A stretch of DNA of 64,000 bases from Anaerolineales bacterium (GCA_019454165.1 CP075367.1:956179-1020178); one strand, 5' to 3'. Counted from the first letter of the stretch, positions 19,884 through 61,505 are shown. The notes: generated from the letters alone by a model not told the origin. Translations and numbers: made by a program.

Positions 19884-20009
19884 TTTTTCGCGTGTGTGTC
19901 CTCTTCGTTCGTTGGCACAACCCCTTTCTGCCTGGTCATTAGACAATAGTTGACGTCATCTGCGTGTATAAGTAATATACTCCCTGTTAACCACACAGGT
20001 GGGTTTCTT

Positions 20010-20831: not shown

Positions 20832-20913
20832 CAGGTAACAATTCTGTTAGGTGACCAGCCGCCTGGGGAACTTTCGCTGCTGCCTTCCGGGGGTCACACA
20901 TAAAGGGAGAACT

Positions 20914-23565
20914 ATGAACTTCAGTTTTCGTTTCAAGTTGATGAGCGCAGCCATGGCGTTTGTGCTCATCTTTTCGATGGCAACGCCGATCGTGGCATTT
21001 GCCAACGAAGCTACGCCCGAGGAACCAACCACGGGTGAAAGCACGCCCCCCGCGGAAGAGCCCGCGCCGGAGGAGACTCCTGCTGCTGACTCTGCGGAAG
21101 GCGACGGCGAGGAGGCCTCAGCAGAAGAACCTGCCCCGCAGGAGACTCTGGCTGATGTGGTGCAGGCCCTCAGCGAATCTGAGGCTGTGTTGGTGGATGC
21201 CAATGGCGCACCGCTGGCTTTGGCGACCAACGAGGCCGCAGAGTTGCTGGCCAACCCTGATCCTTACATTGAGCGCGGTGGGATCACGTATCGCTTCCTC
21301 AACGATTGTTCGGCTTTCCCGGACGACCCAGAGAACATCTGCTATGAGTCTGCGACTCTAACTCCGATCCAGGATGCAATTGACTTTGCCATCGCTGGTG
21401 AAACTGTGCATGTTCTGGCCGGTGTTTTCACGGAGCAGGTTGTGATCAATAAGGACCTGACCTTGAAGGGCACTCCGGGTGCCATCATCAAGGCGCCGAC
21501 CACCCTGCCTGAGCACTTTGTTACCTCTGGTAACAATCGCCCCATCATCTATGTACACGATGCCAACAATGTGGTCATTGATGGCTTTGTTATCGATGGT
21601 GATAACAAAGGCGATGCGAATGCGCTAATGAATCGCTTTGTTGGCATTGGCTTTTACAACGCGGGTGGCACGATCTCCAACAATACGGTCACCAATGTCA
21701 TGGACAGTGTGCTCAAAGGCACTCAGCATGGCAATGCTATCTACGTTTATAGCGATGATGGCGTTGCCCGCACGGTGGTTATTGACGGCAATGTGGTCAA
21801 TAACTATCAAAAGAACGGCATCACTGTGCATGGCACCAACCTGAACGCCGAGATCACCAACAACACGGTCACCGGCGCGGGCACGACCACTGTCATCGCT
21901 CAGAACGGTATCCAGGTGTCTGGCGGTGCCGTTGCGCTGATCGAGGGCAACGATATCTCCGGGAATGACTATGGCAATACCAGTTGGGCCTCTACCGGCA
22001 TCTTGCTTAACGGGGCTGGTGATGGCGTTGAAATTCGTGACAATCAGATCCACGACAACCAGACCAACATCTATGCGATTGCTTCTGATGATCTGACCTT
22101 GGAGAACAACACGATTTCCGGGTCTTCGTTGTACTACAACGTGCTGTTGTACAACTTGGATGGTGCAACGGTAACCGGCAACACGATCAGCGACGCGGAT
22201 AATGAAGGCCTTGTGATCTACGACGCTGACAACGTGGATGTGAACGGCAACACCTTCTCTAACAATGGAACCGGCATCTACTCGGTATACGCCACGAATG
22301 TGACCATCAATCAGAATGACATCACTGGCAATGGGGTTGGCGTGTGGAATGATGATGTTACTGTTCTAGACGCCACCAACAACTATTGGGGTTGTGCTAC
22401 CGGCGCCAACACGGCTGGTTGCGATACCACCAGTGGTAACGTGGACACTGACCCCTCTCTGACCAACTCCATCTTCTTTGTGGATACCGATGGCGATGGC
22501 GTTGAAGATTCCCTGGACAACTGTCCCTTGGTTGCCAATGCGGACCAAGCTGACAGCGACGGCAATGGCGTGGGCGATGCTTGCGAGCCCCCGGCGCCTG
22601 TCGACACTGACGGCGATGGCATTCAAGATTCTCTGGACAACTGCCCCTTGGTTGCGAATGCGGACCAGGCTGACAGTGACGGTGATGGTGTAGGCGACGC
22701 CTGCGACACCACGACTGATGATGAAGATGACGACGTCGTGGTGCTCGTACCTGTTGGCGGTGGCCTGTTCATCCCGGTGACGGGCGGCCAAACCCAGAGC
22801 CTGAACCTGGACGCGCTGAGCACCACTGGCCTGTTGCAGCTGATCGCTGCCAACCAGTTCCCCCTGGCGGCAGAGGGCGGCTTCTTCTCCTTCTCCTGTG
22901 TGCTGAAGAGCGTGACCACGCTGACCCCTGACCAGTACATCGTGCAGGATGGCAAGACGGTTACCTCGGTTGGCCAGTGCAGCTACATGGCTAATGACGT
23001 GGAGCGCACCATCACGCTCGCCCTGACCTACCTGGGCGAGGGCGGCAGCTTTGCCCCTGGCGATGTGCTGCTGGTGAACCTGGCCGAAGGCGACTTTGCC
23101 GGCTTCGCCAACAGCGGCAACCCCTTCGATGCCGGCAACTTCATGCTGGCCAGCTCGCTGGATCGCATCGGCGTGACCGGCACGCTGGAGCTGACCGCGG
23201 ACGAGCTGCTGAGCGCGCTGGAAGGCGTGGCCGAGCCTGAGTTCCCGCTGACCGAAGAGGACGGTGCGTACGAGCTGGCTTGTGTGCTCGAGAGCGTGAC
23301 CGTGCTCGACGAAGGTGTTGAGCTGGAAGACGGCCAGGTGGCTACCGCCATCGGCGTCTGCAGTTACCTGCTGGACGGCGGCAAGCAGAGCGTGATCGTG
23401 GCCCTGAACTACGAGGGCGGCACGGACAGCTACTCGCCCGGCGAAGTACTCTCGCTGAGCCTGAGCGGCGACGCGGCTGTGAGCTTTGCTGGCAGCGGTA
23501 ACCCCGAGGACTTGGGCGGCATGGTGCAGCCCGACGGCCTGGAAGTTACCGGAGATGTGAACTAG
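20914..23565 (+). CDS. Large secreted protein: right-handed beta-helix repeats + thrombospondin type-3 repeats + duplicated C-terminal domain
   Basis: SD AGGGAGA precedes ATG 20914. Signal peptide [30 protein letters not shown]. Many NNT(V/I)(S/T)G beta-helix turns. Two TSP3 repeats DTDGDG(V/I)[20 protein letters not shown](N/D)GVGDAC, and two homologous ~110-aa C-terminal modules. Confidence 0.75.
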
Positions 23566-24804: not shown

Positions 24805-25254
24805 TTAGAGTAATCTTTCGAACTCTTTGCCGTAGTCTCGCAAATCATAAATAAAACCTTGCCACCCGGCGCGACGAGCAGTATCACTTAGTGGTTTTCT
24901 GGGCACAAACAGATTTGGACGTTGTTTACTGGCTGGCAGATAAAAGATCGCTCTTTGCTTATTACTTGGACTCACTACTACGACAAACAAGGAAAAATAG
25001 ATGCCTTGATCCATGCGATCTTTCTGTACCTGCCAGGCTGCGCCGAGGATTTTAGTCGGCAGCTTATCGACTTTCACTTGGTTAGTTGCCTTAACCTGAG
25101 CTAGGAATCCACAAAAATCACATATCAGATCAGCACACTTAAAGTTGGGAGGAAGCCGTTTCAGGGAACCTTGTCGTTTGCAATTCGGACAGGCGCAAGA
25201 CCCGATCACAAGCTTCTCTCCATATTCGCCTAATTTTTGCTTTTCAGTACTCAT
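24805..25254 (-). CDS. DpnI-like (Dam-replacing family) PD-(D/E)XK nuclease domain protein, no winged-helix domain
   Basis: From ATG 25254 (149 aa): CPNCKRQGSLKRLPPNFKCADLICDFCGFLAQVK (CxxC...CxxC plus D...xVK). The C-terminal RKPLSDTARRAGWQGFIYDL matches my recollection of the DpnI catalytic domain (RKPLAPTARRAGWIGC). The gene is markedly AT-richer than its flanks. Confidence 0.55.
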   Translation of the reverse strand: MSTEKQKLGEYGEKLVIGSCACPNCKRQGSLKRLPPNFKCADLICDFCGFLAQVKATNQVKVDKLPTKILGAAWQVQKDRMDQGIYFSLFVVVVSPSNKQRAIFYLPASKQRPNLFVPRKPLSDTARRAGWQGFIYDLRDYGKEFERLL

Positions 25255-25344
25255 TGCATCCTCGGCTCCTATCCCTTGACAAGTGCCATTGTAATTGTGG
25301 CTTCTAATTATTAGAGGGTACGATCGATTCCAAAAGGGGGAACT

Positions 25345-27075
25345 ATGCAAGAACTAGCGCACTTTCAGTCTATCGCCACTCATATGATCGCGGCTGACCG
25401 CCAGCGTGACCAGATGCTGCGCGCCATGGACACCATGTGGCACAACCGCTGGCAGCTGCCGCCGGCCCTGCACGCCGTGGGCTGGGTGCATAAGGTGGTG
25501 AGCACCGACCCGCACGATGCCGTGCGGGCCGGTACGCGGGTACTCAGCTCGGTGGCGCCGCGCATCACCGCCCAGCCGCTAGGCTACGCCCAGGGCGGGG
25601 CGCAGGCCGCCCGCCAGCAGGCCGAGCGCATCGAGCGCGCCCTGGCCTGGCACTTCCGCAACGCCAGCCGCCGGCGGCGTGCCAGCATTTTGCGGGATGT
25701 GGTGCTGAGCGCGCTGCTGTACGACGAGGTGGTGGCCCAGGTGGTGTACCTGCCCGCCCAGCAGCAAGCCGCCCGCCAGCTGGGTCTGGCCGCCAGCGGC
25801 CTGGCCAGCAGGCCTGCCCAGCGCTTCGGGCCGTTCGCCATCATTGTGCGCAACCCGCAGCACGTGCATGTGCGCTATTCCGATTGGGCGCCGGAGGCGG
25901 TGCTGCTGAAGCAGGTCATGCCGCTCGGCGAGGCGGCCGCGTTTTGGGGCGGGGCCCTGACCGAGAAGCTGCCCCGGCCGCGCCGCGGCCGGGCGGCTAA
26001 GCGGGCCGAGGAGCTGCGCTACTGCACCATCTTCGATTACATGGATAGCGAGCAGCGCGCCGTGTGGGCCGTGCTGCAGGAGGACGGCGCGGCGCTGGCC
26101 GAGCCGACCGGCAGCGAGCAGGCCGCCGCCATCGAAATCCTGCGCGAGGAGCACGGGCTGGGCTTCCTGCCCTGGGCCGCCAAGGTGGGCGGCACCACGC
26201 TGCACAGCGGCGGCGCCCAGCGCATCCCGCTGCTGGCTTCGGTCTTTCAGTCGGGGCAGTGGGATACCCAGAACATCGTCGAGACTTTACTGGCGTCTGA
26301 GGTCATCGCCTACGCGGCTGCCCCGCGCCTCAAGGTGGAGGGGCCGACTGCTGAAGTGGATGTGGACTACAGCGAGCCGGGTCGGGTGGTGCACGTGCCG
26401 CCCGGCCACCAGCTCAACCCGCTGGCCGCGCCCGGGCTGGACGAGAGCCTGGCGCGCATCGCCGAGCGCGTGGCGGAGCGCATGGGCAAGAGCACGGTGC
26501 CGCGGGTGCTGCAAACCGCCGACTTCCCCAATGGCACAGCCTTCGCCACGCTCAACCTGGCGACCCAGAGCGGCATCAAGAGCCTAACGCCGTACAAAGA
26601 GCTGGCCGAGGATGCGCTGGCCGAGGTGTTCCAACTGATGCTGAGCTGGGTGCAGCACAGCGGCCAGGCGCTGGATGCGTATGTCAACCAGCGCGGCCGG
26701 AGCCAGCCGATCCGGCTGGACCCGAGCGAGGGTGACCTGACCGAGGTGCTGATCGATGTGGAGCTGACCGCGGATGTGCCTACCGACCGGATGGCGCGCA
26801 TTAATGCGGCCAGCATGGCGGTGCGCGATCTGGGCTACAGCCGCGAGCGGGCTTTGGAGCAGATCGGTGAGACGGATGCAAAAGAGGTGATGGCCGAGGC
26901 CGAGCGCGAGCAGCTGGCGGCGGCCCGCCTGGAGGCGCGCAAGCGCCAATTGCTGGCCGGCGCGGCGCCGGAGCCTGCGACCGTGAGCACGCAGGGCATG
27001 GACCCGGCCGCAGGCGGCCTGCCCCCGGTTGTTGCGAACCCGGAGGCAGTAGCCGGGGCGAATGTGAGGGAGTAG
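25345..27075 (+). CDS. Phage portal-like protein (podovirus type)
   Basis: 576 aa. The call rests on size, an acidic/coiled C-terminus (EREQLAAARLEARKRQLLA) and overall resemblance to head-tail connector proteins. SD is AAAAGGGGGAACT-ATG. Assigned by family flavour and context, not by a sharp motif. Confidence 0.55.
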   Translation: MQELAHFQSIATHMIAADRQRDQMLRAMDTMWHNRWQLPPALHAVGWVHKVVSTDPHDAVRAGTRVLSSVAPRITAQPLGYAQGGAQAARQQAERIERALAWHFRNASRRRRASILRDVVLSALLYDEVVAQVVYLPAQQQAARQLGLAASGLASRPAQRFGPFAIIVRNPQHVHVRYSDWAPEAVLLKQVMPLGEAAAFWGGALTEKLPRPRRGRAAKRAEELRYCTIFDYMDSEQRAVWAVLQEDGAALAEPTGSEQAAAIEILREEHGLGFLPWAAKVGGTTLHSGGAQRIPLLASVFQSGQWDTQNIVETLLASEVIAYAAAPRLKVEGPTAEVDVDYSEPGRVVHVPPGHQLNPLAAPGLDESLARIAERVAERMGKSTVPRVLQTADFPNGTAFATLNLATQSGIKSLTPYKELAEDALAEVFQLMLSWVQHSGQALDAYVNQRGRSQPIRLDPSEGDLTEVLIDVELTADVPTDRMARINAASMAVRDLGYSRERALEQIGETDAKEVMAEAEREQLAAARLEARKRQLLAGAAPEPATVSTQGMDPAAGGLPPVVANPEAVAGANVRE

Positions 27076-36090: not shown

Positions 36091-36867
36091 TTATTCGAGG
36101 ACGGTTTTGACTTTGAGCCTGCGCTGCACGAAGGGCGGCGGAAAGTAGGCGATGTAGATCAGCGCTAGCGCAGCGATCCCCAAGATGCGGATGGTAAGCG
36201 GCCACCAACTGGTGGCGTTCAGGTTGATGCCCACAAGGAGGAGCAGGAGCGGAATAAAGTAGGCCACGCCAAACAAGCAGAAGAAGCCCAGCGGCACCAA
36301 CAGCGCACGGAACTTGGCGCTGCGCTCGCTGACTTTGAAATATAAGCTGAACATGCCGAAGCTGGCCAGGATGGGCGGCAAACTGAGCAGCACGATCAGC
36401 AGGACGCCATACACCAGGCCGAACAGTCCTTGCGGTACGTTTTGGTATTGGATGATGGCTTCCCAGGTTCCCAGCGACACGCCAATGGGCCGGAAGATGT
36501 AGATCGAGATGAGTAGAAAGAGGCCGAAGGCAATGTAGAAGCCGGCCACCCAGCGTGAGGCGCGGTGATTGCCTCTGAAGATGTACATCAGATAGGTCAG
36601 CAAGCCCCACAACGCCGGAGCAGCTGAAAGTGTAGCCGCCAGGCTGAATAGCACGAACAGAGGCAGGTAATCAACGCCCAGGCTCAGGAACAAAACCGAC
36701 AGGCCGTTGATGGCCGTGTTGGCGGCCATGCCAAACCACCACACGCGGAAGGCGCGCCAGGCGCGCCCATCATCGGCGTTATCGAATGTCTTCTTGCCCA
36801 GGGAGTGGCCAATGAAGAAATACAGGATGCTGTTTGCAAAAAAGATGACCAGCGGAGCGATGTTCAT
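36091..36867 (-). CDS. 7-TM membrane protein, paralog B
   Basis: From internal ATG 36867 of the 475-aa ORF (258 aa). It is collinear with the upstream paralog, sharing RAW.AF..WWFGMAAN, SRWVAGFYIAFG, LPPILAS and WWPLT.R..GI.AL.LIY.AY.PP. Confidence 0.65.
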   Translation of the reverse strand: MNIAPLVIFFANSILYFFIGHSLGKKTFDNADDGRAWRAFRVWWFGMAANTAINGLSVLFLSLGVDYLPLFVLFSLAATLSAAPALWGLLTYLMYIFRGNHRASRWVAGFYIAFGLFLLISIYIFRPIGVSLGTWEAIIQYQNVPQGLFGLVYGVLLIVLLSLPPILASFGMFSLYFKVSERSAKFRALLVPLGFFCLFGVAYFIPLLLLLVGINLNATSWWPLTIRILGIAALALIYIAYFPPPFVQRRLKVKTVLE

Positions 36868-36881
36868 ACAGCTATGGCCCT

Positions 36882-37652
36882 TTAGTTGGTAAGGGCGGCA
36901 ACGCCAAAGCGTTGGCGCATCAATGCCGGCGGGTAATAGGCGAAATAGATCAGCAGCAGCGCCAGGATGCCCACCAGGCGGAAGGTGAGCGGCCACCAGG
37001 GGAGCTGGGTCGTGATGATGCCAAACAGATACAGGATGATGGGCATGATGTATGGCACGCCGAAGAACAAGAAGATGCCGATCGTGACCAATGCGGAGCG
37101 ATAGCGCGAACTGCGTTCGGTCAGGCTGAAGAACAGGCGAAAAAAGGCCGCGCTGGCCAGAATGGGCGGCAGCCCGAACAAAAGCAGCAAGCCAACCGGA
37201 TACAGTGGGCCGGGCGTGTGCTGGTACTCGATCAGCACTTGCCAGGTCGAGAGGCTGGCCCGCACCGGCACGAAAGCGAACACGGTGTAAAGCAGGTAGA
37301 TGCCAAAGGCGATGTAGAAGCCAGCCACCCAGCGAGACGGCCGCCAGCTGCCTGTGTATACGTACAGCAGATAGCTGAGCAAGCCCCACAAGGCCCACCC
37401 AGCCGCAAAGGTGCCTAGCAGGCTGAGCGCTACGAAGAGGTACAGGCTGCTGACGCCAAACGCGCTCAGCGCCATCGAAAAGCCCATCAGGGCAGAATTG
37501 GCGGCCATGCCGAACCACCAGATGAGGAAAGCGGCCCAGGCGCGCTGGTCTTTCGCATCCTCATACTGCTTGGCCCTCAGGCGCAGCCCGATATAAAGAA
37601 ACAGTGCACCGCTGAGCAAGTGCACCAGAATGGCAACGGTGGGGGATGTCAT
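36882..37652 (-). CDS. 7-TM membrane protein, paralog A
   Basis: 256 aa. It shares the same conserved blocks as paralog B, from which it is separated by 14 nt. Confidence 0.65.
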   Translation of the reverse strand: MTSPTVAILVHLLSGALFLYIGLRLRAKQYEDAKDQRAWAAFLIWWFGMAANSALMGFSMALSAFGVSSLYLFVALSLLGTFAAGWALWGLLSYLLYVYTGSWRPSRWVAGFYIAFGIYLLYTVFAFVPVRASLSTWQVLIEYQHTPGPLYPVGLLLLFGLPPILASAAFFRLFFSLTERSSRYRSALVTIGIFLFFGVPYIMPIILYLFGIITTQLPWWPLTFRLVGILALLLIYFAYYPPALMRQRFGVAALTN

Positions 37653-37962: not shown

Positions 37963-38322
37963 ATGCACGGGGGAAATACGAGTGACGGCGCGGACACCGC
38001 GCCACAGTCTGCTGGCATTGGCGCCAGTAAAAAGCAACAGCGCATCGCTGATCTGGTGAAGGAGCAACTGCACGGCCAGCTAAAGGAGGAGCTGGAGCAG
38101 GCGCTCGAAGCGCGCCTGGCGCAATGGAGCGCGCCAGCCGCCCCGGCTGGCGCCGAGCCCGGCCGCGCCAGCCGGGTGATCCCACCCGGCGGCGCGGGAG
38201 CGCCGGCGCCTGACCTGCGCGAGGAGTACGCCCGCCGCCTGGGCGCACTGCGCCCGGGCGACCTAGCGGCGGTGCTGGAGCTGAAGCGCGAATTCCGCAA
38301 GCGCGGGCTGGAGGTGTATTAG
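37963..38322 (+). CDS. Scaffolding-like protein (small, helical, immediately upstream of the capsid gene)
   Basis: SD AAAGGGGGAAGT precedes ATG 37963. 119 aa, charged/helical (QQRIADLVKEQLHGQLKEELEQALEARLAQW) with an Ala/Pro-rich middle. The function is inferred from position only. Confidence 0.45.
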   Translation: MHGGNTSDGADTAPQSAGIGASKKQQRIADLVKEQLHGQLKEELEQALEARLAQWSAPAAPAGAEPGRASRVIPPGGAGAPAPDLREEYARRLGALRPGDLAAVLELKREFRKRGLEVY

Positions 38323-38327
38323 AGCAA

Positions 38328-38350
38328 GGATGAAGGATGAAGGATGAAGG
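38328..38350. repeat. Tandem (GGATGAA)x3 simple repeat
   Basis: GGATGAAGGATGAAGGATGAAGG lies directly after the stop of the scaffold-like gene. The same word flanks the four-helix-bundle gene at 61 kb. Confidence 0.8.
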
Positions 38351-38388
38351 CGATACGACTTTAGGTATTTAGATGACAAGGGGGATGA

Positions 38389-39519
38389 ATGGCAATTTAC
38401 GATGGAATGAAGACAACCTACGCGGATACTGCCGCCCAGGCGCGTGCCATCAGCGATGTGGTGCAGATGATCGACCCGCGCGACACTCCGCTGCTGGCGC
38501 GGCTGGGGTTGGACAGCGCTCGCGAGAAGTTCAAGATCCGCATGAACGGGAACAAGGTCGAGCTGCTCGAAGACGAGCTCGACCCGCTGGTGACCGCCGC
38601 CAACAACGGCGAGACCATCGCGGTGGGCGACACCAGCTTTGTGGTGGCGGACGCCTCGGTGTTCCAGGATGGGCATGTGATCCTGATCGATGCCGAGTAC
38701 ATGGTGGTCAAGAGCGTGGACCTGGGCACCAACACGATCACGGTCTACAGCCGCGCCTATGGCGGCACGAACGCCACGCACGCGGCCAACGCGCCGATCC
38801 ACATCACCGCCATGGCACGCCTGGAGGGCGACGATGCCGACTACGGGCCGCTGGTGGCGTTGAACGTTCCGTTCAACTACACCAGCATCTTCCAGAAGGC
38901 GGTGCAAGTCAGCGGCACGCAGCAGGCCATCAGCCAGTACGGCATCGAGGATGAGTTCCAGTACCAGGCCAACAAGGCCGTGCCGCACTTGCTGCGCCTG
39001 GTGGAAGGCGCAGCCTTCCACGGCGTGCGGGCGGCTGGCTCCGCCAGCACGCCGCGCTCCACGGGCGGGCTAGGCGCCTTCATCACCAACAACGTGGTGG
39101 ATGCGGGCGGCGCCATCGCCAAGGCGGATGTCGACAGCCTGATGGAAGAGATCGTGATGGATGGGGGCAACCCGGACCTGCTGGTGATGAACCCGCGCGT
39201 CGCCAATGATCTGCGCGGCCTGCTGGACAACAGCACCTTCGTGCGCGTGGGCCAGGGCGAGCACAAGCTCGGCCTGGACGCGATCGAGCGCGTAGTCACG
39301 CAGTACGGCGAGCTGGAACTGGTGATGGATCGCTGGTGCCCGGTGCACACCGCCTATGTGCTGGAGAGCGGCAAGGTGGGCTTCTACACGTTGCGCGGCT
39401 TCGAGGCCAAGGAGCTGGCCCGCTCGGGCGACAGCCTGAAGGGCGAAGTGGTGGGCGAGCTGAGTTTGCTGGTGGCCAACAACAAGGCCCACGGCAAGAT
39501 CACCGGCATCACTACGTAA
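38389..39519 (+). CDS. Phage major capsid protein (HK97 fold, SU10/DUF5309-like family)
   Basis: 376 aa. The N-terminal block ISDVVQMIDPRDTPLLARLG...KVELLEDELD matches the I..I.P.DTP....G....EW.ED.L signature I associate with this MCP family. SD is ACAAGGGGGATGA-ATG. Confidence 0.8.
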   Translation: MAIYDGMKTTYADTAAQARAISDVVQMIDPRDTPLLARLGLDSAREKFKIRMNGNKVELLEDELDPLVTAANNGETIAVGDTSFVVADASVFQDGHVILIDAEYMVVKSVDLGTNTITVYSRAYGGTNATHAANAPIHITAMARLEGDDADYGPLVALNVPFNYTSIFQKAVQVSGTQQAISQYGIEDEFQYQANKAVPHLLRLVEGAAFHGVRAAGSASTPRSTGGLGAFITNNVVDAGGAIAKADVDSLMEEIVMDGGNPDLLVMNPRVANDLRGLLDNSTFVRVGQGEHKLGLDAIERVVTQYGELELVMDRWCPVHTAYVLESGKVGFYTLRGFEAKELARSGDSLKGEVVGELSLLVANNKAHGKITGITT

Positions 39520-39596
39520 GCAGGTGAACAGTGAGCAGTGAGGAGGGAGCAGGGCCGGTGGCCTTATTCGCAACTCGCTGCTGATTGTCTTGCTTG

Positions 39597-39635
39597 AACA
39601 GGCCTAGGCGAGGGGGAGCCTGGGCCTGTTTGTTT
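39597..39635 (+). terminator. Terminator-like hairpin directly downstream of the capsid gene
   Basis: AACAGGCCTAGGC-gaggggga-GCCTGGGCCTGTT (one mismatch) is followed by TGTTT. Confidence 0.5.
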
Positions 39636-39735
39636 AACTCCTTGACATGCGGATACGAATCCGCGCAAAGTGCAGCCGGCGTGCTATGAATGCGGCAGGC
39701 TGCGCGCGAATGGCGCAGCGGAACAAGGGGGATGT

Positions 39736-40563
39736 ATGTCGTACACGTTCAGTGAGTTGCTTCAAGACGCCTATACCGAATTGGGCCAGCTGCGCCGCGG
39801 CCTGGCCAGCGGCGGCAGCGCCAGCACGCTGGCGGATGCCGCCGAGCTGGCCGGCCAGTACCGCGAGGATGACTGGAAGGGCGGCGCGCTGTTCCTGGCG
39901 GCGGGCGGCATGCCGCCCGCCGGCGAGTTCGCTCGCGTGGTTGGCTTCGTCGCCAGCAGCGGCACGCTGGCGCTGGGCAGCAGCCTCAGCGAGCCGGTCG
40001 AGGCCGGCATGGCCTATGGGCTGGCCTCGGCGCAGTACCCGCTCGCCACCATGATCGAGCTGGCCAACAGCGGCCTGCGCGGCCTTGGGGATGTGCCCCA
40101 GGTCGACGAAGATGTGCTGCCCTCCAGCGCCCACACGCTGGCCTGGGCGCGCCGCCGCCCGCTGCGCATCGATTATCTGGCGGTGCCCGGTGTGAGCGCC
40201 GGCGACCCGTGGCGCACCTTGCATGATTGGGATTTTGTGCCCGCCGCGCCCGGCTCGCCCGGGATGGTGTTGTTCGCCGACCCGCTGCCGGCCGGGCGGC
40301 CGCTGCGCGTGTGGTACCTGGCCGCCCATCCGCGCCTGGCCGCGCATGGTGATGTGCTCGCCGAGGCGGTGGCGCCCGAACTGGCCGTGGCCGCCGTGGC
40401 CGAGCGTGCCCTGCGCTGGCAGTGCGCCCGCAAAGGCGGTGACGAAAAGCTGGCCCTGCTGTGGCAGGAGGCGGTGGAGGAGCTGCAAGCCGCCCGCCGC
40501 CGCTTCCCGATCTGGCGGCCGCAGCGCCCGGCCCGCCTGCTACGCCTGCGGGGGCAGGCGTGA
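39736..40563 (+). CDS. Virion-associated protein, adaptor / tail-tubular-A-like by position
   Basis: SD ACAAGGGGGATGT precedes ATG 39736. 275 aa with no recognisable motif. The function is inferred from its position after the MCP and before the large protein. Confidence 0.4.
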   Translation: MSYTFSELLQDAYTELGQLRRGLASGGSASTLADAAELAGQYREDDWKGGALFLAAGGMPPAGEFARVVGFVASSGTLALGSSLSEPVEAGMAYGLASAQYPLATMIELANSGLRGLGDVPQVDEDVLPSSAHTLAWARRRPLRIDYLAVPGVSAGDPWRTLHDWDFVPAAPGSPGMVLFADPLPAGRPLRVWYLAAHPRLAAHGDVLAEAVAPELAVAAVAERALRWQCARKGGDEKLALLWQEAVEELQAARRRFPIWRPQRPARLLRLRGQA

Positions 40564-43109
40564 GTGTGCGCGTCTACGCCGGGGCCAGCGTCGCCAGCCA
40601 CGAACTCAGCCTGAGCGATGGCGTGCTGACCTGGGGCTTGCGCTTGGAGGGCGGGGCGCAGGGCATCAAGGAGAGCGTGCTGACACCCTCCGGCTTGCGG
40701 CTCAACTGGGTCAGCGGCTTCGGCGCCTGGGAGCCGGGGCTGGCCCAGGTCGAGCAGCGTGATTGGAGCGGCGGCCGCGGCGCGGCCCGCTTCAGCACGC
40801 AGGCCGCCCGCCGCTTCTACGACAGCCAGGACGCCTGGACCCTGACGCCGGGCCGAGTACATGCCACGCCACAGTGGCGCTATGCCAGCGGCCTGCGTAC
40901 CGCGGCCCAGCGCCTGCCGGGCGATGTGCGCTGGCAGGCGCTGATCGGCGCGCAGCGCAGCCTGGCGGCCGCGTTCAGTGTGGCTGCCGGCGGCCTGGCT
41001 GCGAAGCAGGCGCGGGTCTGGCTGCGCCGGGTGGGTTCGCCCGGGCAGCTGACGCTGCAACTGCACGCGGATGCGGCCGGGCAGCCGGGTACGGTGCTGC
41101 CCGGCTCCACCAGCGCCATCACGCAGGCGGATGTTGGCGATGTCATCAGTCAGTTGCGCAGCTTCGATGTCTCCGGCTACAGCACGCCGCTCAGCGCGGG
41201 CAGCTATCACCTCTCGCTGCACGGGGCCGCGGCGGACAATGCCAGCAATCACTGGGAGATCGGCGTGCAGCGGCGTGCCAGCGGCGGGCACAGCTCGCCG
41301 GATGGCAGCGCCTGGACGGCCACCGAGTTTTGCGCCTACTACCGCGTGCAGGATGCGGATATCCCGCGCACCTTCCTGTTCTTCGAATTGCGCGGCGTGC
41401 TGTACGCGGTGGACCAGCGCGCCAATGGCAACGCCTCGCGCGTGTACATGAACGGCGAGCGCGGCGTCGCCACCAGCGGGGCGGCCGCCACGCTGAGCGA
41501 CACGAACCGCAACTGGCCGGCCGATCAGTGGGCTGGGGCATGGGTACGTATCCTGGCCGGCAAAGGGGCCGGGCAGGCGCGGCGCATTCTTTCGAACACG
41601 GTCAGCGTGCTCAGCGTGGCCGCCTGGGATCTGGCGCCGGACAGCACGTCTGAGTACATCATCTACGCCACGCCGCACTGGCGGGATGTTTCGCCGAGCT
41701 CGGGCGACCAGATCGATGGCACGGTGCGGGACGTGAGTGTGCTCAACGGGCAGGCGCTGTTCGCCCAGGGCTCCAGTGTGCCGATCCTGCGCATGCGTTT
41801 CAACGCCGGAGCTTCACCGCCCAAGCACGAATTTCTGGATGATGGCAGCAACACCGCCGACCTCCTGCATGTCTTCCAGCACAGCGAGCTTGGCCCGCAG
41901 GTGTGGCGCGGTGTGGCCAGCAATGCTCAGCTTTCGCGGGCCGCGCCGGCCGGCTGGCTTACGCCGCTCAGCTTCGGCACGGCGATCCAGTTGGGCGCGG
42001 ACGGCCAGGCGCTCCACAAGCTGTTGGATTTCAACGGCCAGCTGTGGGGCGTCAAAGCCAACAGTCTATGGATCGTTGAGCGCACTGAGCATGTTGCCCG
42101 CCACAACCTGGGGCTGGAGGCGTTTCCGCAACTGAGCGGCGGGCAACCGGCGCGGGTGTGGGAGGACAAGCTGTGGCTGGGCTGGGGCTGCAGCCTGCTG
42201 GTGACTGGCGGCAGCGGCCTGGCCGACGTTGGCCCGGGCCGCGGCGAGGGGCTGCCTGCCGGCCGCGGCGGCCGGGTGGAGGCGCTGGTGCCGCTGGGCG
42301 CTGGCCGCATGGCGGCCGCCATCGACGCCGGAGATGGGCATTCCAGTGTGATGGTGTGGGATGGCGAGGCTTGGCATGAGCTGCTGCGCGCCCCGCGGGC
42401 TGGCGAGCGCATCCGCGGCCTGTACTGGCAAAGCTGTCCGGGCAGCACGCCGCGGCTGTGGGTGGAGATGGGCGGTGAGCTGGCGTATGTGCAGCTACCC
42501 GCCTATGGCGAAAACCCGCTGGGCGATGCGGATCTGCAATACCAGCACGAGGGTGTGCTGGTAGGCAGCACTATCGATATGGAGGCCACGCTGCTGCCCA
42601 AGTTCCTCACCCAGCTCAGCCTCGTGAGCCGCAACCTGGGCGAAGGCGCACAGGTGGAGCTGGACTATCAGGTGGATGGTGAGATCGGCGGGCCGCGCTG
42701 GCGCCAGGCCGGCGGCTTCTACTCCTCGCCGCTGGATACGCTGACGCTGAACACGGGCGAGATCTCCGCCTTTCGCCCGCGCCTGCGCTTGCTCAGCCAG
42801 CGCGCCAGCAAACCGGCCACCGTGGAGGCGACCCAGCTGGAAGGCTTTGCGCGTACGCCGCAGAAGTACCAGTGGGAGCTGCGCGTGCGCCTGGGCGAGT
42901 TGCAGCTGGATGGCGGCGGCGGGCTTGACCCGGCGCCGGCGGCCTTCCTGGCCTGGCTGCGGCGGGTGGCGCGCAGCGCCGCCCGCATCCACCTGCGCTC
43001 CGTGTGGAGCGCGTTGGATGACACCTACGTCATCGTCGAGGCGCCCAGCCTGCAACGCGAGCTGGACAGCGAGGGCGGCGTGGCGGTGGTGAAAGTGCGC
43101 GAGGGATAA
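40560..43109 (+). CDS. Large virion-associated protein (849 aa), nozzle / tail-tubular-B-like by position and size
   Basis: GTG 40560 overlaps the preceding stop (GTGA) and follows GGGGG by 5 nt. The protein is beta-rich and repeat-like. The ORF-track start at 40461 would overlap the previous gene by 100 nt. Confidence 0.45.
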   Translation: MSVRVYAGASVASHELSLSDGVLTWGLRLEGGAQGIKESVLTPSGLRLNWVSGFGAWEPGLAQVEQRDWSGGRGAARFSTQAARRFYDSQDAWTLTPGRVHATPQWRYASGLRTAAQRLPGDVRWQALIGAQRSLAAAFSVAAGGLAAKQARVWLRRVGSPGQLTLQLHADAAGQPGTVLPGSTSAITQADVGDVISQLRSFDVSGYSTPLSAGSYHLSLHGAAADNASNHWEIGVQRRASGGHSSPDGSAWTATEFCAYYRVQDADIPRTFLFFELRGVLYAVDQRANGNASRVYMNGERGVATSGAAATLSDTNRNWPADQWAGAWVRILAGKGAGQARRILSNTVSVLSVAAWDLAPDSTSEYIIYATPHWRDVSPSSGDQIDGTVRDVSVLNGQALFAQGSSVPILRMRFNAGASPPKHEFLDDGSNTADLLHVFQHSELGPQVWRGVASNAQLSRAAPAGWLTPLSFGTAIQLGADGQALHKLLDFNGQLWGVKANSLWIVERTEHVARHNLGLEAFPQLSGGQPARVWEDKLWLGWGCSLLVTGGSGLADVGPGRGEGLPAGRGGRVEALVPLGAGRMAAAIDAGDGHSSVMVWDGEAWHELLRAPRAGERIRGLYWQSCPGSTPRLWVEMGGELAYVQLPAYGENPLGDADLQYQHEGVLVGSTIDMEATLLPKFLTQLSLVSRNLGEGAQVELDYQVDGEIGGPRWRQAGGFYSSPLDTLTLNTGEISAFRPRLRLLSQRASKPATVEATQLEGFARTPQKYQWELRVRLGELQLDGGGGLDPAPAAFLAWLRRVARSAARIHLRSVWSALDDTYVIVEAPSLQRELDSEGGVAVVKVREG

Positions 43110-43203
43110 GACCCCGAGTGACCAGGGAGCAGCAATGAGTGAGCAGCAACCAGTAATCAGTGAGCAGTAATCGGTGAGCAGGTACAGGTCTGCTGAGCAC
43201 GGA

Positions 43204-43259
43204 TCACTGATCCCTAATCCCTAATCCCTAATCCCTAATCACTGATCCCTGTTCACTCT
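43204..43259. repeat. Heptamer tandem repeat: (TCCCTAA)x4 flanked by TCACTGA/TCCCTGT/TCACTCT variants
   Basis: Four perfect TCCCTAA units at 43211-43238 and about 8 related units in total. The upstream half of the spacer (43110-43200) carries the inverse words (CAGTGAGCAG x4). Confidence 0.85.
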
Positions 43260-43287
43260 TGATGGCTAATGCCAGAAAGGAAACTCT

Positions 43288-43713
43288 ATGTACAGTTTTA
43301 TCTACAACGCCGGCAAGCTGGCTTTGCTGAAGGGCGAAGTGCAGCCGCTGGCGCATACGTTGCGGGCGGCGCTAGTGACAGATGCATACCTGGCGAACAA
43401 AGATGCGCATGCCGTCTTTGCCGACATCAGCCATGAGGTGACCGGCACCGGTTACACCGGCGGTGGCAAAGCGCTGACCGGTGTCACGCTGGTGCAAGAC
43501 AACGCCAATGACCGCGCCGCCTTGAAGGCCGACAATGTGGTGTGGAGCGTGGGGGCGTTCACGGCGCGGGCGGCGGTGCTCTACAAGGACACCGGGAACC
43601 CGGCCACCAGCCCGCTGCTGGCCTATATGAACTTTGGCGGTGACCACACCGTGAGCGGCGACGACTTCAATCTGGAATGGAGCCCCGAGGGCGTCATCTA
43701 CCTCGGCGAATAG
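43288..43713 (+). CDS. Conserved phage-like structural protein (141 aa)
   Basis: MYSFIYNAGKLALLKGEV...ALVTDAY...HEVTGTGYTGGGKAL...DNVVWSVGAFTARAAVLYKDTG resembles a small protein family I have seen in podophage structural modules. Its function is unknown. Confidence 0.5.
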   Translation: MYSFIYNAGKLALLKGEVQPLAHTLRAALVTDAYLANKDAHAVFADISHEVTGTGYTGGGKALTGVTLVQDNANDRAALKADNVVWSVGAFTARAAVLYKDTGNPATSPLLAYMNFGGDHTVSGDDFNLEWSPEGVIYLGE

Positions 43714-43716
43714 GCG

Positions 43717-45084
43717 ATGGCTACTTGGATCGAAGGTTTCCTGGAAAGCGAGAGCGAGCTGGCTCGCCTACCGGTGGTGACGCGCAGCGCCCATTCCACC
43801 CACTTTGAGCTGGGGGCGGGCGTGCAGCGGGCGGTCATCACCACCGCGCCGCAATACTTCCGCAGCCCGCAGGGCTGGCAGGCCTATGACCTGCAGCTGC
43901 GCGCCGATGCGGCCGCCCGCTGGGGCGCGCCGGGCGCCCCAGCACGCCTGGCCGCCGACGGCAGCGTGTGGCTGGGCGAGTACCAGCAGCACACGCGCAG
44001 CGTGGGCGTGTTGGTGGATGAGGCGTACACGCCGCTCTGCACGCTGCCCGAGGGCCGCGTGGCCGGCCCACGCTTGGTGCGCGAAACCAGCCCCTTCCGC
44101 CATGAGCTTTTGCTGACCGAGGATGGCGTCAAGGAGGAGCTGCATATCGCCAGCCTGCCGGATGGCCTGGAGGGTGGCTACCTGGTCTACGAGACCCACA
44201 GCCGCGGCGCGCGCCTCGGCCTCAGCTTTTCGCCCGGCAGCTCGATGGATGCGGCCGGCCGGGCCTGGCCGCTATATCGCTTCGAGGTCGGCGGCGTTAC
44301 CTACACCGGCCTGGCAGCCGAAGATCTGGCGCGGGCGGAGTTCCCGCTGGTGATCGACCCCACCGTGTCGTACGCTTCTGCCGGAGATGGCACCATCACC
44401 GGCTATTCCGGCAGCTACACCACCGCGCACACCACCTCGGTTCACTTCGATAGCGGGGCGGCCGAGCTGATCGTCGGCCAGGCGTTCGATACCGGCATCC
44501 CGCGCTTCTACATGTTCCGGGCCGCCATCAAGTTCAGCCTGGCGTCGCTGAATCCGTTGGCGGTCATCTATGCTGCCAACCTGCGCATGGTGTGCACGAT
44601 GGACGAGTCGACGCTGGCTGACTTCGGCGTGCAGATCGTCAAGCACAACTGGGCCGCCCAGGACCCGCTGACGAATGGCAACCGCGAGGCGGTGTTCGAT
44701 GCCTGCCTGGCGGGGACTACCGATGCGGTGTGGAAGAACACCAGCGCCATTACGGTGAATACGCAATACACCAGCGCGCCGCTGGATGTCAACTGGTTGA
44801 CGCCGGGCGGCACGGTGTACTACAGCCTGCGCAGCAGCCGGGATGCGGCCGGGGTGATCCCGCCCGCCAACGGCAACGAGTACGTACGCCTGGGGGCCGG
44901 GGCGCACAGCAACGTGAACCGCCGCCCGGCGCTAATCGTGGACTACTTCGCCGTGCCGAGTGCGGCCGGCAAGCTGGCTCAACCCAGCCCGCGCGTGCGC
45001 ATTGAGGATACGCGCATCAAGCTGCGCGCCCGCCGGCGCAAGACCTTGCTTGATGCGCGCAACAGGGGGAATGATGGCAGATAG
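43717..45084 (+). CDS. Fibre/receptor-binding-like structural protein (455 aa)
   Basis: It starts 3 nt after the preceding stop. It is beta-rich and ends in a basic tail. The function is inferred from position. Confidence 0.4.
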   Translation: MATWIEGFLESESELARLPVVTRSAHSTHFELGAGVQRAVITTAPQYFRSPQGWQAYDLQLRADAAARWGAPGAPARLAADGSVWLGEYQQHTRSVGVLVDEAYTPLCTLPEGRVAGPRLVRETSPFRHELLLTEDGVKEELHIASLPDGLEGGYLVYETHSRGARLGLSFSPGSSMDAAGRAWPLYRFEVGGVTYTGLAAEDLARAEFPLVIDPTVSYASAGDGTITGYSGSYTTAHTTSVHFDSGAAELIVGQAFDTGIPRFYMFRAAIKFSLASLNPLAVIYAANLRMVCTMDESTLADFGVQIVKHNWAAQDPLTNGNREAVFDACLAGTTDAVWKNTSAITVNTQYTSAPLDVNWLTPGGTVYYSLRSSRDAAGVIPPANGNEYVRLGAGAHSNVNRRPALIVDYFAVPSAAGKLAQPSPRVRIEDTRIKLRARRRKTLLDARNRGNDGR

Positions 45085-45403
45085 TGCAGTCTGGCTGATC
45101 GACAGCCCGGTCAGCATGCTGGCCGGCGAGCAGATCGCCTACAGTGTGGATTGGCAGGGCGCCACCAGCGTCAGCGCGCCGCACGCCACGGTGTACCGCA
45201 ACGGGGCCGACATCACCGCCGAGGCGATGGACGCCGGCGATGCGCATGTGATCACCGGCAGCGTGCTGACGCTTAAAAAGCTACGCGCCCTCGATGCCGA
45301 TGGGGGCGCGCGCTATGTGGTGCTGATGGGTGCGCTGGTGGACGGCAACCAGGAGCGGCGTAAGCTGCTGGTGCAGGTCGTCTCGGCCAGTGCAGAAAGC
45401 TAG
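45071..45403 (+). CDS. Small beta-rich protein (110 aa) ending the plus-strand structural string
   Basis: ATG 45071/45074 directly follows AGGGGGA and overlaps the previous gene by 14 nt. The product begins MMADSAVWLIDSPVSMLAGEQIAYSVDWQG. Confidence 0.45.
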   Translation: MMADSAVWLIDSPVSMLAGEQIAYSVDWQGATSVSAPHATVYRNGADITAEAMDAGDAHVITGSVLTLKKLRALDADGGARYVVLMGALVDGNQERRKLLVQVVSASAES

Positions 45404-45567
45404 GGTTTCGACACTTGCTTGTAACGCATGTAGGCGGTTGCCATCGCCCAGGCCAGCAGGCCGGCGATGCAGCCAAGCACAAGGTTGTCTCGGATCAGGC
45501 CAGTGCCTACGCCAACGCCCAGCCCGAGCCAGATCGCCTGGCGGCTGTTCATCTCGATAGGCTTCAT
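45400..45567 (-). CDS. Small membrane protein (55 aa, Gly-zipper)
   Basis: Below the ORF-track length cut-off. My translation is MKPIEMNSRQAIWLGLGVGVGTGLIRDNLVLGCIAGLLAWAMATAYMRYKQVSKP. It shares a palindromic CTAG stop with the plus-strand gene. Confidence 0.45.
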   Translation of the reverse strand: MKPIEMNSRQAIWLGLGVGVGTGLIRDNLVLGCIAGLLAWAMATAYMRYKQVSKP

Positions 45568-45569
45568 GG

Positions 45570-45839
45570 CTACTTCTGGCTGGCCGAGCCGGCCGCGCCG
45601 AAGGCCGCGCCCAGCGCAACGCCGATGGCGATGCCCATGCCGATATTGTCCGTCGCCACGCCAATGGCGACGCCCAGGGCAAGCCCGGTGGCCAACGAAA
45701 CCGGGAAGGTGTTGGCGCTACCCTTCTTGGCTTCCGGCTTCTTGGCGGCGCTCTTGGTTACAGGCTTCTTGGCCGCGGTCTTCTTGGCAGCCGGTTTGGC
45801 GGTCTTCTTGGTGGTGGTCTTTTTCTTTGCGTTAGCCAT
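45570..45839 (-). CDS. Small protein with Lys-rich N-terminus and Gly-zipper TM C-terminus (89 aa)
   Basis: SD GAGGAGAT precedes ATG 45839. The product is MANAKKKTTTKKTAKPAAKKTAAKKPVTKSAAKKPEAKKG...LATGLALGVAIGVATDNIGMGIAIGVALGAAFGAAG. Confidence 0.55.
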   Translation of the reverse strand: MANAKKKTTTKKTAKPAAKKTAAKKPVTKSAAKKPEAKKGSANTFPVSLATGLALGVAIGVATDNIGMGIAIGVALGAAFGAAGSASQK

Positions 45840-45888
45840 TTTCTCGATCTCCTCATCGGGATTGTAGTGCATTTTGAAGGGGGAAACT

Positions 45889-46095
45889 ATGGATACGGAT
45901 ATGCGTGTACTGTTCGAAGCGATCAATGCCTTGGGGGTAGTTGGCCTGCTGATGTTCATGGTGCTGGCGTTCTACCGAGGTGACTTGATCGCCCGCAACC
46001 TGCTCGACCGCATCTTGAGCTTGTATGAGGAGCAGCTGGACCAACTGAGCCAGCGCATTCTTGCCAAGTTGGAGGAGGTGATGAAGAAAGACTAG
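45889..46095 (+). CDS. Holin-like small protein (1 TM + charged coiled C-terminus)
   Basis: SD GAAGGGGGAAACT precedes ATG 45889. The product is MDTDMRVLFEAINALGVVGLLMFMVLAFYRGD...EEQLDQLSQRILAKLEEVMKKD. Confidence 0.45.
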   Translation: MDTDMRVLFEAINALGVVGLLMFMVLAFYRGDLIARNLLDRILSLYEEQLDQLSQRILAKLEEVMKKD

Positions 46096-46152: not shown

Positions 46153-46404
46153 ATGGAACAAGCATTGTATTGGCTGACCGGCGCGCTGGGCGTGCCGTTG
46201 GTGAATTGGCTCAAAGCCCGCTACGGCCTGCAGGGCCGCGCCGCCATGTGGCTCACCACCGCCGTGGCGGCGCTGCTGGGCCTGGCGGCCGCGCTGCTCA
46301 GCCGTGAGCTTGCGCCGGGCAGCCTGCAGCCGGAGGGGCTGCTGGCTGCCTTCGGCCAGGTGCTGGCCGCCGCCACGCTGGCCTACAAGCTGCTGGCGGA
46401 GTAG
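46153..46404 (+). CDS. Holin-like small membrane protein (83 aa, 2-3 TM)
   Basis: SD TAGGGGGGAACT precedes ATG 46153. The product begins MEQALYWLTGALGVPLVNWLKARYGLQGRAAMWLTTAVAALLGLAAALL. Confidence 0.45.
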   Translation: MEQALYWLTGALGVPLVNWLKARYGLQGRAAMWLTTAVAALLGLAAALLSRELAPGSLQPEGLLAAFGQVLAAATLAYKLLAE

Positions 46405-51043: not shown

Positions 51044-51274
51044 TTGCCCAAGGTTGTTCTCAGGCCCGGTGAGTCGCAAGGCTCTCTGCTGAAGCGCTTC
51101 CGCAAGAAAGTTGCCCGCAGCAAAGTGCTGAGCACGGTGCGCCGCAAGCGCTGGTTCATTTCTACCAATGAGCAGCGCCGTATGGAGAAGCAAAAAGCCA
51201 TTCGCAAAGCGCAGCGTCGCCTCTCTGGCTGGAAGCCCAAGCCACGGCCTACTTCTGGCTCCGCCCAGTCGTAA
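51044..51274 (+). CDS. rpsU: 30S ribosomal protein S21
   Basis: TTG 51044 follows GGAAAGGTGGTG and gives MPKVVLRPGESQGSLLKRFRKKVARSKVLSTVRRKRWFISTNEQRRMEKQKAIRKAQRR, the S21 pattern. The exact start is uncertain. Confidence 0.8.
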   Translation: MPKVVLRPGESQGSLLKRFRKKVARSKVLSTVRRKRWFISTNEQRRMEKQKAIRKAQRRLSGWKPKPRPTSGSAQS

Positions 51275-61004: not shown

Positions 61005-61016
61005 AGGATGAGGTGG
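60984..61016. repeat. GGATGAAGG-type simple repeat, left flank of the four-helix-bundle cassette
   Basis: AGGATGAAGGTGGAAGGATGAAGGATGAGGTGG. The DAAO stop codon (GGA-TGA) lies inside it. Confidence 0.8.
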
Positions 61017-61462: not shown

Positions 61463-61505
61463 GGCGGAAGGAATTCATCCTTCCGCCTTCATCCTTCATC
61501 CTTTG
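61463..61505. repeat. Inverted copy of the GGATGAAGG repeat, right flank of the cassette (includes a hairpin)
   Basis: GGCGGAAGG-aattcat-CCTTCCGCC is followed by TTCATCCTTCATCCTTTG. The pckA stop (TCA on plus) lies inside it. Confidence 0.8.

Follow-up and report, generated by a model that had tools for sequence, protein, structure and literature searches.

As a chromosomal stretch from an Anaerolineales bacterium (Chloroflexota) carries a tightly packed run of genes in an order resembling that of phage T7, without anything resembling the internal core genes of such a phage, we were interested in what kind of element this is and whether it could still serve a purpose for its host. The sequence under study, called the window in the following, comprises 64,000 nt (GCA_019454165.1 CP075367.1:956179-1020178) with positions counted from its start, and related loci fetched for comparison are labelled with L-numbers (e.g. 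L005, L019, L048). The window is a piece of Anaerolineales chromosome and neither a phage genome nor a normal prophage, and the gene set of the element is spread over three loci within 32.6 kb (13760-46404) with housekeeping genes between them. We lean towards reading this set as a particle system of podovirus origin, domesticated and dispersed in the chromosome, that functions in the manner of a gene transfer agent (GTA).

A podovirus head-and-tail gene set

The core of the element consists of seven plus-strand open reading frames (ORFs) between 37963 and 45403, which are a genuine podovirus head-and-tail gene set. Coordinates and junctions read directly from the sequence agreed throughout with a preliminary description of this DNA: a start/stop overlap GTGA joins the 275-aa and 849-aa genes (40560-40563), a 3-nt gap (GCG, 43714-43716) separates the 141-aa and 455-aa genes, and the 455-aa and 110-aa genes overlap by 14 nt, from the ATG at 45071 to the stop at 45084. 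The lengths of the homologues (849/848, 274-283, 141, 451-458 and 109-111 aa) are consistent with the start choices, and the GC content at third codon positions (GC3) of all seven ORFs is of coding type (0.79-0.89), which together with ratios of non-synonymous to synonymous divergence (dN/dS) well below 1 in comparison with orthologues indicates real genes and not chance ORFs. The T7-like order proposed in the preliminary description holds in that scaffold-like, capsid, 275-aa, nozzle and small tail genes follow each other as in podoviruses, but a fibre of the T7 gp17 type is not among them. The scaffold-like, 275-aa, 455-aa and 110-aa proteins and the putative portal described below gave no match in Pfam, PHROGs or NCBIfam, and profile hidden Markov models of the 275-aa, 849-aa, portal and 110-aa families gave nothing significant against PDB sequences.

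The first ORF (37963-38322, +) encodes a small helical protein of 120 aa with a putative scaffold function, suggested by the position of its gene directly 5' of the capsid gene at every locus. In relatives the protein has about 175-220 aa, of which an internal part is missing here; an N-terminal SKKQQRIADLVK helix and a C-terminal LKREFRKRGLEVY motif are conserved, and the gene shows a dN/dS of 0.12-0.41. The 376-aa product of the second ORF (38389-39519, +) is a major capsid protein of the SU10/DUF5309 type, with matches to Pfam PF17236 (4e-63), phrog_1328 (1.9e-54) and the SU10 major head protein (PDB 7z45, 4.5e-9) as well as a match below threshold to NCBIfam capsid_maj_Podo; its identity across Anaerolineales chromosomes is 66-99%. 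Just 3' of the capsid gene, a terminator-like hairpin with a 14-bp stem (39599-39635, +; -27.6 kcal/mol) is followed by TTTGTTT and may act as a partial terminator that reduces expression of the tail genes. The third ORF (39736-40563, +) always lies directly upstream of the nozzle gene, and its 275-aa product is 36% and 30% identical to the pre-nozzle gene products of phage MW202725 and of L050, respectively. We regard it as a putative head-to-tail adaptor in the position of T7 gp11 and SU10 gp16. Of the gp11-like protein that the preliminary description suggested looking for here, the position was thus recovered, while profile searches and hhalign gave no gp11-like match (E=0.7 with SU10 gp16, not significant).

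The 849-aa product of the fourth ORF (40560-43109, +) is, according to its structural model, a podovirus tail nozzle with the fold of T7 gp12, P22 gp10 and the SU10 nozzle. AlphaFold2 modelling with 64 collected homologues gave a predicted local distance difference test score (pLDDT) of 89.2 and a predicted template-modelling score (pTM) of 0.83, and in a Foldseek comparison with the PDB the best 15 matches were all podovirus tail-complex chains (E=1.8e-11 to 3.6e-7, probability 1.00), from SU10 (7z4f_G, 1.8e-11), E1004, cyanophage A4, T7 gp12 (9jyz_P, 8e4g_P, 7boy_s), P22 gp10, Sf6, Pa223, PhiM1 and Kp7. The gp12-like fold looked for was thereby found. Whole-chain TM-scores were low (0.15-0.36), as expected when a multidomain monomer model is compared with assembled chains, and the sequence identity in the structural alignments to SU10 and T7 chains was about 8-10%. 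Alignment with the SU10 nozzle sequence by hhalign was not significant (E=0.07), the nozzle being identified by fold comparison only; with an 882-aa protein of phage MW202725 it shares 38% identity. The repeat-rich spacer behind the nozzle gene (43110-43287) folds modestly better than shuffled sequences (z=-2.25).

The fifth ORF (43288-43713, +) encodes a 141-aa protein that matches phrog_644 (9.5e-33). Searching the PDB with its profile gave 9d93_Ra, the 'Tail wing arm, gp31' of mycobacteriophage Bxb1 (E=1.1e-6), which joins the base protein to the peripheral brush (PMC12646305). Homologues occur in 145 phage records, and in Gordonia phage Sixama the homologue is annotated as a minor tail protein and is followed by a large tail-end gene. 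The 141-aa small tail protein is therefore likely the anchor for the product of the next gene (43717-45084, +), a 455-aa putative lectin-like receptor-binding protein. Its AlphaFold2 model (pLDDT 85.1) shows a pair of beta-sandwich domains followed by a basic, disordered C-terminus (residues 416-455), and resembles carbohydrate-binding modules in the PDB (8wab, 8e-6; 7vbo) and phage tail and CBM96 proteins in BFVD (best 3e-14), while tblastn against 50,697 phage records gave no match. The gene is the fastest-evolving of the module, with 27-66% identity at distant loci vs 50-90% for its neighbours, and in L002 a Laminin_G_3 protein is found in its place; this variability and replacement are the behaviour expected of a receptor binder. 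The last ORF (45071-45403, +) encodes a small 110-aa protein of the tail module, conserved in at least 14 chromosomal loci and 40% identical to a 117-aa protein of MW202725 encoded two genes 3' of the nozzle gene; its family profile had no match in the PDB. Of the three ORFs described before as unrecognisable, two can consequently be assigned, as wing arm-like (141 aa) and as a tail protein resembling carbohydrate-binding modules (455 aa), the latter answering the question of a receptor-binding fold in 43717-45084, and the 110-aa protein stays without a match.

Terminase and putative portal genes at two further loci

The large terminase subunit (TerL, 480 aa) is encoded at 13760-15202 (-), solitary among cellular genes, 2.3 kb from bipA and 23 kb upstream of the module. 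It matches Pfam Terminase_6C (1.5e-6), phrog_38 (2.3e-56) and, below threshold, NCBIfam termin_lrg_T7, shows the conserved residues of Walker A (K57), Walker B (D173/D174) and the acidic nuclease site (D306, D443/444/447), and is 29% identical to TerL of phage MW202725. The putative portal gene (25345-27075, +; 576 aa) is likewise solitary and lies between a DpnI-like gene and a dioxygenase-like gene. Its product is 35% identical over about 545 aa to that of the gene directly after TerL in MW202725 and 29-58% identical to that of the post-TerL gene in L019, L036 and L042-L044; no hit was obtained in Pfam, PHROGs or PDB sequences, and hhalign with the SU10 portal was weak (E=0.18). The separate portal of the preliminary description thus exists as an intact ORF, portal-like only through its homology to a phage post-TerL gene. 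Cellular genes lie in the 10.1 kb that separate it from TerL and in the 10.9 kb up to the scaffold gene, so that the adjacency of portal, terminase and scaffold genes seen in podoviruses is not found.

The three loci are tied together by a common ribosome-binding signature. Of the 11 element genes, 9 are preceded by a Shine-Dalgarno variant GGGGG(A), with cases in all three loci, compared with 0 of 38 cellular genes (p=2.7e-8), which use GGAG-type ribosome-binding sites or none. It is located 3-8 nt before the starts at 15202 (-), 25345, 37963, 38389, 39736, 40560, 45071, 45889 and 46153, the last two belonging to small genes at the end of the module, with GGGGGA before TerL, the putative portal and the start at 45889 and GGGGGGA before the gene at 46153. 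The motif is kept in the close relatives L001 and L008, and distant relatives have strong GGAGG-type sites instead. A search for shared promoters or operators upstream of the three loci yielded the ribosome-binding signature only, and a scan for sigma-70 promoters and terminators remained at background level.

Related phages carry a giant gene absent from the chromosomal intervals read

Homologues of the nozzle, adaptor-like, 110-aa, TerL and portal proteins are encoded by the uncultured podophage MW202725.1 ('Podoviridae sp. ctzlq274', 41,774 bp). Further phage relatives with such homologues are L043, a metagenome contig, and viral contigs from IMG/VR (L050, L053-L059; 15-42 kb), the capsids of the IMG/VR contigs being 52-62% identical. 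Between phages and element the gene order is the same, and identities are 29-58% for TerL, 27-38% for the portal (where it lies within the fetched locus), 25-36% for the adaptor-like protein, 24-38% for the nozzle and 29-40% for the 110-aa protein; the capsid gene of MW202725 gave no BLAST match to that of the window. All nine phage contigs (9/9) encode TerL, the portal, a 300-460-aa protein (with LysM in MW202725), a giant protein of 1,867-3,036 aa, the scaffold and the capsid protein, and wherever a contig extends that far, the adaptor and nozzle genes come next. The phage relatives are contiguous genomes of 37-42 kb with replication, regulatory and lysis genes and with beta-helix, LamG or collagen-like fibres, whereas the chromosomal element has neither this contiguity nor the giant gene, the replication, regulatory and lysis modules or such fibres.

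The giant gene is absent at every chromosomal locus with a readable portal-to-scaffold interval (window, L002, L019). No homologue of the giant protein was detected anywhere in the 64 kb, and no gene of the size or character expected for an internal core protein is located in or beside the module. The gap in the T7-like gene order that had been pointed out before is therefore real, and an ejection-protein-like ORF, which might have been encoded elsewhere, was not found in the window. The absence of the internal core is a derived loss that accompanied domestication together with the loss of replication, regulatory and fibre genes. IMG/VR contains full-length phage relatives only and not the dispersed form.

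Conservation and selection in Anaerolineales chromosomes

Capsid homologues with 66-99% identity are abundant, and all named ones are from Anaerolineae/Chloroflexi, on contigs of 0.3-4.4 Mb. The window itself is nearly identical to Anaerolineales bacterium ACE_CHL7 (L005). While the gene order of the module is conserved across the relatives, the layout varies: in L019 the TerL, portal, scaffold, capsid and tail genes are near-contiguous with rpsU between portal and scaffold, in L002 about 6.7 kb of other genes separate the portal from the scaffold, in L009, L010 and L025 the capsid gene is apart from the tail genes, and in L030 and L031 TerL is solitary and near bipA. In the gap between capsid and adaptor-like genes, L048 (JAHCIJ010000002.1; 1-9007) and L052 (CP075526.1; 3356-9052) carry inserted Rhs/YD-shell toxin cassettes with small downstream ORFs. 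Their products include a protein of >3,100 aa that combines SpvB, RHS and Laminin_G domains, and a fusion of a YD-shell protein with an M23 peptidase. As other inserts of 2-3 kb are found at the same place in L008, L012, L026 and L028, this gap is an insertion hot spot.

Comparison with four related genomes gave dN/dS values of 0.03-0.08 for the capsid, 0.06-0.15 for the nozzle, 0.09-0.14 for the adaptor-like, 0.08-0.10 for the 141-aa, 0.15-0.30 for the 455-aa and 0-0.21 for the 110-aa gene. Synonymous divergence (dS) of the module (0.2-0.9) equals that of the flanking housekeeping genes in four genome pairs, and in L009 the capsid protein is 78% and BipA 79% identical to its counterpart in the window. 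Among the capsid proteins, the chromosomal ones group in a single clade apart from those of the phages. Linkage of rpsU to the module was seen in 10 loci, and that of bipA to TerL in three contigs in addition to the window. Low dN/dS, matching dS, the capsid clade and the linkage to rpsU and bipA together indicate one old acquisition followed by vertical descent under selection, and the domestication of the element in Anaerolineales is well supported.

The rpsU gene, encoding ribosomal protein S21, is located at 51044-51226 in the window, at 8813-9013 in L002 and at 8828-9004 in L019, where it occupies the position of the giant gene in true phages, and was also seen in L012, L014, L021, L022, L027, L001 and L052; no S21 gene was present in the phage contigs searched (MW202725 not among them). 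In L009, L010, L028, L030 and L031, genomes with a GC content of 0.53-0.56, GC3 is 0.78-0.85 for capsid and TerL genes, 0.79-0.80 for bipA and about 0.45-0.67 for most neighbouring genes. The high capsid and TerL values in these mid-GC relatives suggest codon adaptation to the host, which has also been described for the genes of the GTA of Rhodobacter capsulatus (RcGTA).

Genes at the end of the module and in the surrounding chromosome

Two small genes with the ribosome-binding signature close the module. The first (45874-46095, +; likely start ATG 45889) encodes a protein of ~68-73 aa with an N-terminal transmembrane helix, the one transmembrane segment predicted from hydropathy, and a coiled-coil tail; it is kept 3' of the module in L001, L005, L007, L008, L012 and L013 and is possibly a lysis accessory protein. 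The second (46153-46404, +) encodes a hydrophobic protein of 83 aa; by hydropathy, one of its segments exceeds the threshold and another is borderline. The protein is kept at the module end in 12 loci, its homologue in L002 and L003 comes after a GH25 muramidase gene, and we consider it a putative holin. Between these genes and the 110-aa gene lies a 150-aa ORF (45415-45867, +) of low complexity, weak conservation and uncertain coding content; gene calling in L001 and L052 gave two small genes on the minus strand here instead.

The module is bordered upstream by an ABC transporter and downstream by GNAT, HD-GYP, PolX and rpsU genes; ABC transporter, BipA, rhomboid, multicopper oxidase, PolX, HD-GYP and PEPCK genes lie around and between the three loci, and the rest of the window is ordinary chromosomal DNA as well, with GGDEF proteins and a histidine kinase. 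The 64 kb gave no tRNA and no Rfam hit. The ORFs scanned in the window and in the inspected flanks of related loci included no gene for an integrase, a repressor or replication, and no att-like feature (phage attachment site) was found. An intact prophage, contiguous, bounded by att sites and equipped with integrase, regulatory, replication and lysis modules, is thus not what the window contains, and the cellular genes that split the loci speak against a normal prophage with its core genes immediately outside the window.

Several neighbouring features deserve mention in their own right. Directly 5' of the module, two tandem paralogous genes for multi-pass membrane proteins without family match (36091-37652, -) are found, of which at least one copy (36882-37652) is kept in L001, L005, L007, L008 and L052. 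The gene divergent from the putative portal (24805-25350, -) encodes a DpnI-like endonuclease of the Dam-replacing family, and an Eco57I-type methylase gene is located upstream of TerL in L019, so that the element adjoins restriction-modification genes in two genomes. Between 19400 and 24000 the GC content is 0.57-0.58 vs about 0.63, and this region, which shows no homology to phage fibres, may be horizontally acquired. It encodes an SH3-domain protein (19950-20777) and a 904-aa protein (20851-23565) with a right-handed beta-helix and thrombospondin type 3 repeats, containing a 120-bp tandem repeat at 22492-22732; the latter was considered as a tailspike and rejected for want of homology to phage or element genes. 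For the same reason the 714-aa beta-propeller lipoprotein encoded next to TerL (15313-17457, -) was rejected as a part of the element. Genes for such WD40/PD40/Tricorn-like lipoproteins also surround the portal gene of L002 (1-466, 4976-7891), but the window and L002 genes show no sequence homology to each other or to phages and their presence is possibly a coincidence. Short intergenic tandem repeats, some with 7-nt units, occur at 38326-38350, 43116-43181, 43210-43250, 60983-61011 and 61474-61503, with AAGGATG repeated about 3.6-4.3 times at three sites (one as the reverse complement) and ATCCCTA 5.9 times, and GAGTGAGCAG-type units of longer period are also present in intergenic DNA. As similar heptamer repeats stand beside cellular genes, they look like a genome-wide repeat class, reminiscent of the heptamer repeats in cyanobacteria.

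A possible gene transfer agent and its alternatives

GTAs are recognized by a core head-tail cluster with accessory genes elsewhere, by missing self-propagation and by conservation in the host lineage (PMC11841831). The element is composed of host-encoded phage capsid and tail genes in a core cluster with further genes at other sites (window; L002, L009, L025/L048, L030/31), the DNA seen holds no linked genes for self-propagation, and the genes have been inherited vertically over a long time under purifying selection. From this we consider a particle system of the GTA kind more likely than not, and more tentatively, as an attractive but by no means secure extension, a first GTA family in Chloroflexota, with genes from a T7/SU10-like phage, a single ancient domestication in Anaerolineales, a later scattering of the genes among housekeeping genes and a discarded ejection apparatus that would imply recipient-assisted uptake of DNA. 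The element descends from a podophage of ~37-42 kb whose genes ran from TerL through portal, lysin, giant internal protein, scaffold, capsid, adaptor and nozzle to the fibres. Lost since then are the giant ejection protein and the functions for replication, lysogeny and integration, and in this lineage also the adjacent endolysin. The dispersed genes would be co-expressed in a subpopulation of cells, where procapsids could assemble on the portal from scaffold and capsid protein. Host DNA would then be packaged at random by a headful mechanism through the intact terminase, no small terminase conferring specificity being seen, and the head would be closed by the adaptor, the nozzle and the small tail proteins. 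The 141-aa arm would hold the 455-aa lectin-like protein, which may bind a surface glycan of related cells, and particles could be released by the holin-like proteins and a muramidase encoded elsewhere. Without ejection proteins, DNA transfer would depend on the recipient for entry, as for RcGTA; otherwise the particles would be non-infective.

Several observations weigh against such a function. Podoviruses normally depend on ejection proteins for DNA delivery, and particles without them could just as well fail to deliver any. No candidate for a small terminase was recognized adjoining TerL, in the window or at the solitary-TerL loci, and the window showed neither an endolysin nor a regulator. 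Frameshifts interrupt TerL in L019 (about 4250-4284) and L022 (173-1589), and L021 (6325-6748, 11240-11494) retains only fragments of TerL and portal and a truncated adaptor-like gene, while its capsid gene is intact; this damage reflects either decay in these lineages or assembly errors, all relatives being metagenome-assembled genomes, and the function would then not be universal. The assignments of adaptor and portal are predictions from synteny and from homology to unannotated phage genes. The related phages hold 37-42 kb and thus more than the 32.6-kb span of the loci, so that a head unable to hold all of the element's genes cannot be taken as given, and the shortened scaffold protein of the window lineage is only suggestive of a smaller head.

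The most serious alternative, to which we assign a minor but appreciable probability, is a defective particle comparable to PBSX, podovirus-like and filled with DNA but transferring no genes, with killing, adhesion or another role in the population and with packaging as a by-product. The missing ejection proteins, present in all related true phages, would fit such a particle, as would the retained and fast-evolving lectin-like binder and the Rhs/YD toxin cassettes inserted within the module of L048 and L052, and purifying selection shows that the genes are used but not for what. On the other hand, capsid, terminase and portal are the best-kept parts and the catalytic motifs of TerL are intact, whereas tailocins, the killing particles known from other bacteria, have dispensed with capsid and terminase, and the contractile tail by which PBSX kills has no equivalent here. 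That the genes are merely inert, decaying remains of an old prophage without present function is improbable: their scattering, the missing integrase and replication module, the TerL frameshifts in L019 and L022, the fragments in L021 and the shortened scaffold could be expected of such remains, but all element ORFs of the window are intact and evolve with dN/dS of 0.03-0.3 at dS of 0.2-0.9, the capsid keeps at least 66% identity across the clade, about as slow as BipA, and strong ribosome-binding sites are conserved. Neutral decay would have destroyed the ORFs over such a divergence and is disfavoured.

We see similarly little reason to assume a piecemeal co-option, in which some genes, chiefly that of the capsid, serve an unrelated cellular role and the others persist by linkage. 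The capsid is indeed the most conserved protein (66-99% vs 39-56% for the nozzle in the same distant genomes) and stays intact where its neighbours have been lost or moved (L009, L010, L021, L025), but the TerL, portal, adaptor-like, nozzle, 141-aa and 110-aa genes are also intact and under purifying selection, at loci which linkage cannot preserve, and the ribosome-binding signature is common to all three loci. Very improbable, finally, is a self-sufficient minimal podovirus or an ordinary prophage whose core genes lie just outside the window, as considered in the preliminary description. In its favour is the T7/SU10-like gene order, against which stand the splitting of the loci by cellular genes, the same chromosomal neighbours with matching dS in related species, the missing att site, tRNA and integrase, the rpsU gene at the giant-gene position in L019, and the absence of this form from IMG/VR. 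The stripped-down podovirus-like particle proposed there was correct in architecture and in the missing core, but the genes belong to a domesticated, conserved chromosomal element with terminase and portal genes elsewhere and not to a small phage or prophage. An encapsulin or nanocompartment was ruled out by the presence of terminase, portal and nozzle, a capsid-forming satellite (phage-inducible chromosomal island, PICI) by the tail genes, the dispersal and the missing integrase, and a tailocin by the retained capsid and terminase.

If the GTA reading is correct, it adds a new host phylum and a new structural type to the GTAs, whose origins and frequency are an open question; to our knowledge, no more than a handful of independent domestications have been recognized. 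Wastewater, anammox reactors, sediments and the subsurface are all rich in Anaerolineales. The pairing of phages carrying the giant gene with chromosomal copies free of it shows which genes were shed on domestication, and capsid, terminase and portal genes in these genomes should not be taken as evidence of a prophage or of contamination of a bin by viral sequences.

Comparison with known systems

Phage-derived particles fixed in bacterial chromosomes are also known from PBSX-type defective prophages of Bacillus, which are non-propagating and package host DNA. PBSX is contiguous and myovirus-like with a contractile killing tail, whereas the element described here is podovirus-like and dispersed. 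With Escherichia phage SU10 (Kuravirus) and T7 it shares the nozzle fold, the adaptor-then-nozzle gene pair, the capsid family PF17236 (SU10) and a T7-like TerL match below threshold, but it is not an autonomous virus and is without the injection proteins SU10 gp20-24 and T7 gp14-16 and without a gp17-type fibre. The tail wing of Bxb1 (gp30 base, gp31 arm, gp33 brush) is paralleled by an arm-like gene followed by the gene for a larger peripheral tail protein; Bxb1 is a siphovirus, however, and in the element homologues of gp30 and gp33 were not detected, the partner of the arm resembling a carbohydrate-binding module instead.

No report of a GTA in Chloroflexi, Chloroflexota or Anaerolineae was found in the literature. 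Known GTAs package 4-14 kb of DNA, and all sequenced ones we are aware of are siphovirus- or myovirus-like. The element differs from RcGTA, BaGTA, VSH-1, Dd1 and VTA in its Chloroflexota host, in having arisen independently from a T7/SU10-like podovirus, with genes for a nozzle and for neither tail tube nor tape measure, and in that even terminase and portal genes are split from the capsid gene by housekeeping genes. As in these GTAs, where no specific small terminase is evident, a large terminase has been kept, and no candidate for a small one was recognized next to TerL. Further features in common are chromosome-fixed phage head-tail genes arranged as a core cluster with further loci, missing modules for replication and integration, and vertical descent within a host lineage under purifying selection.

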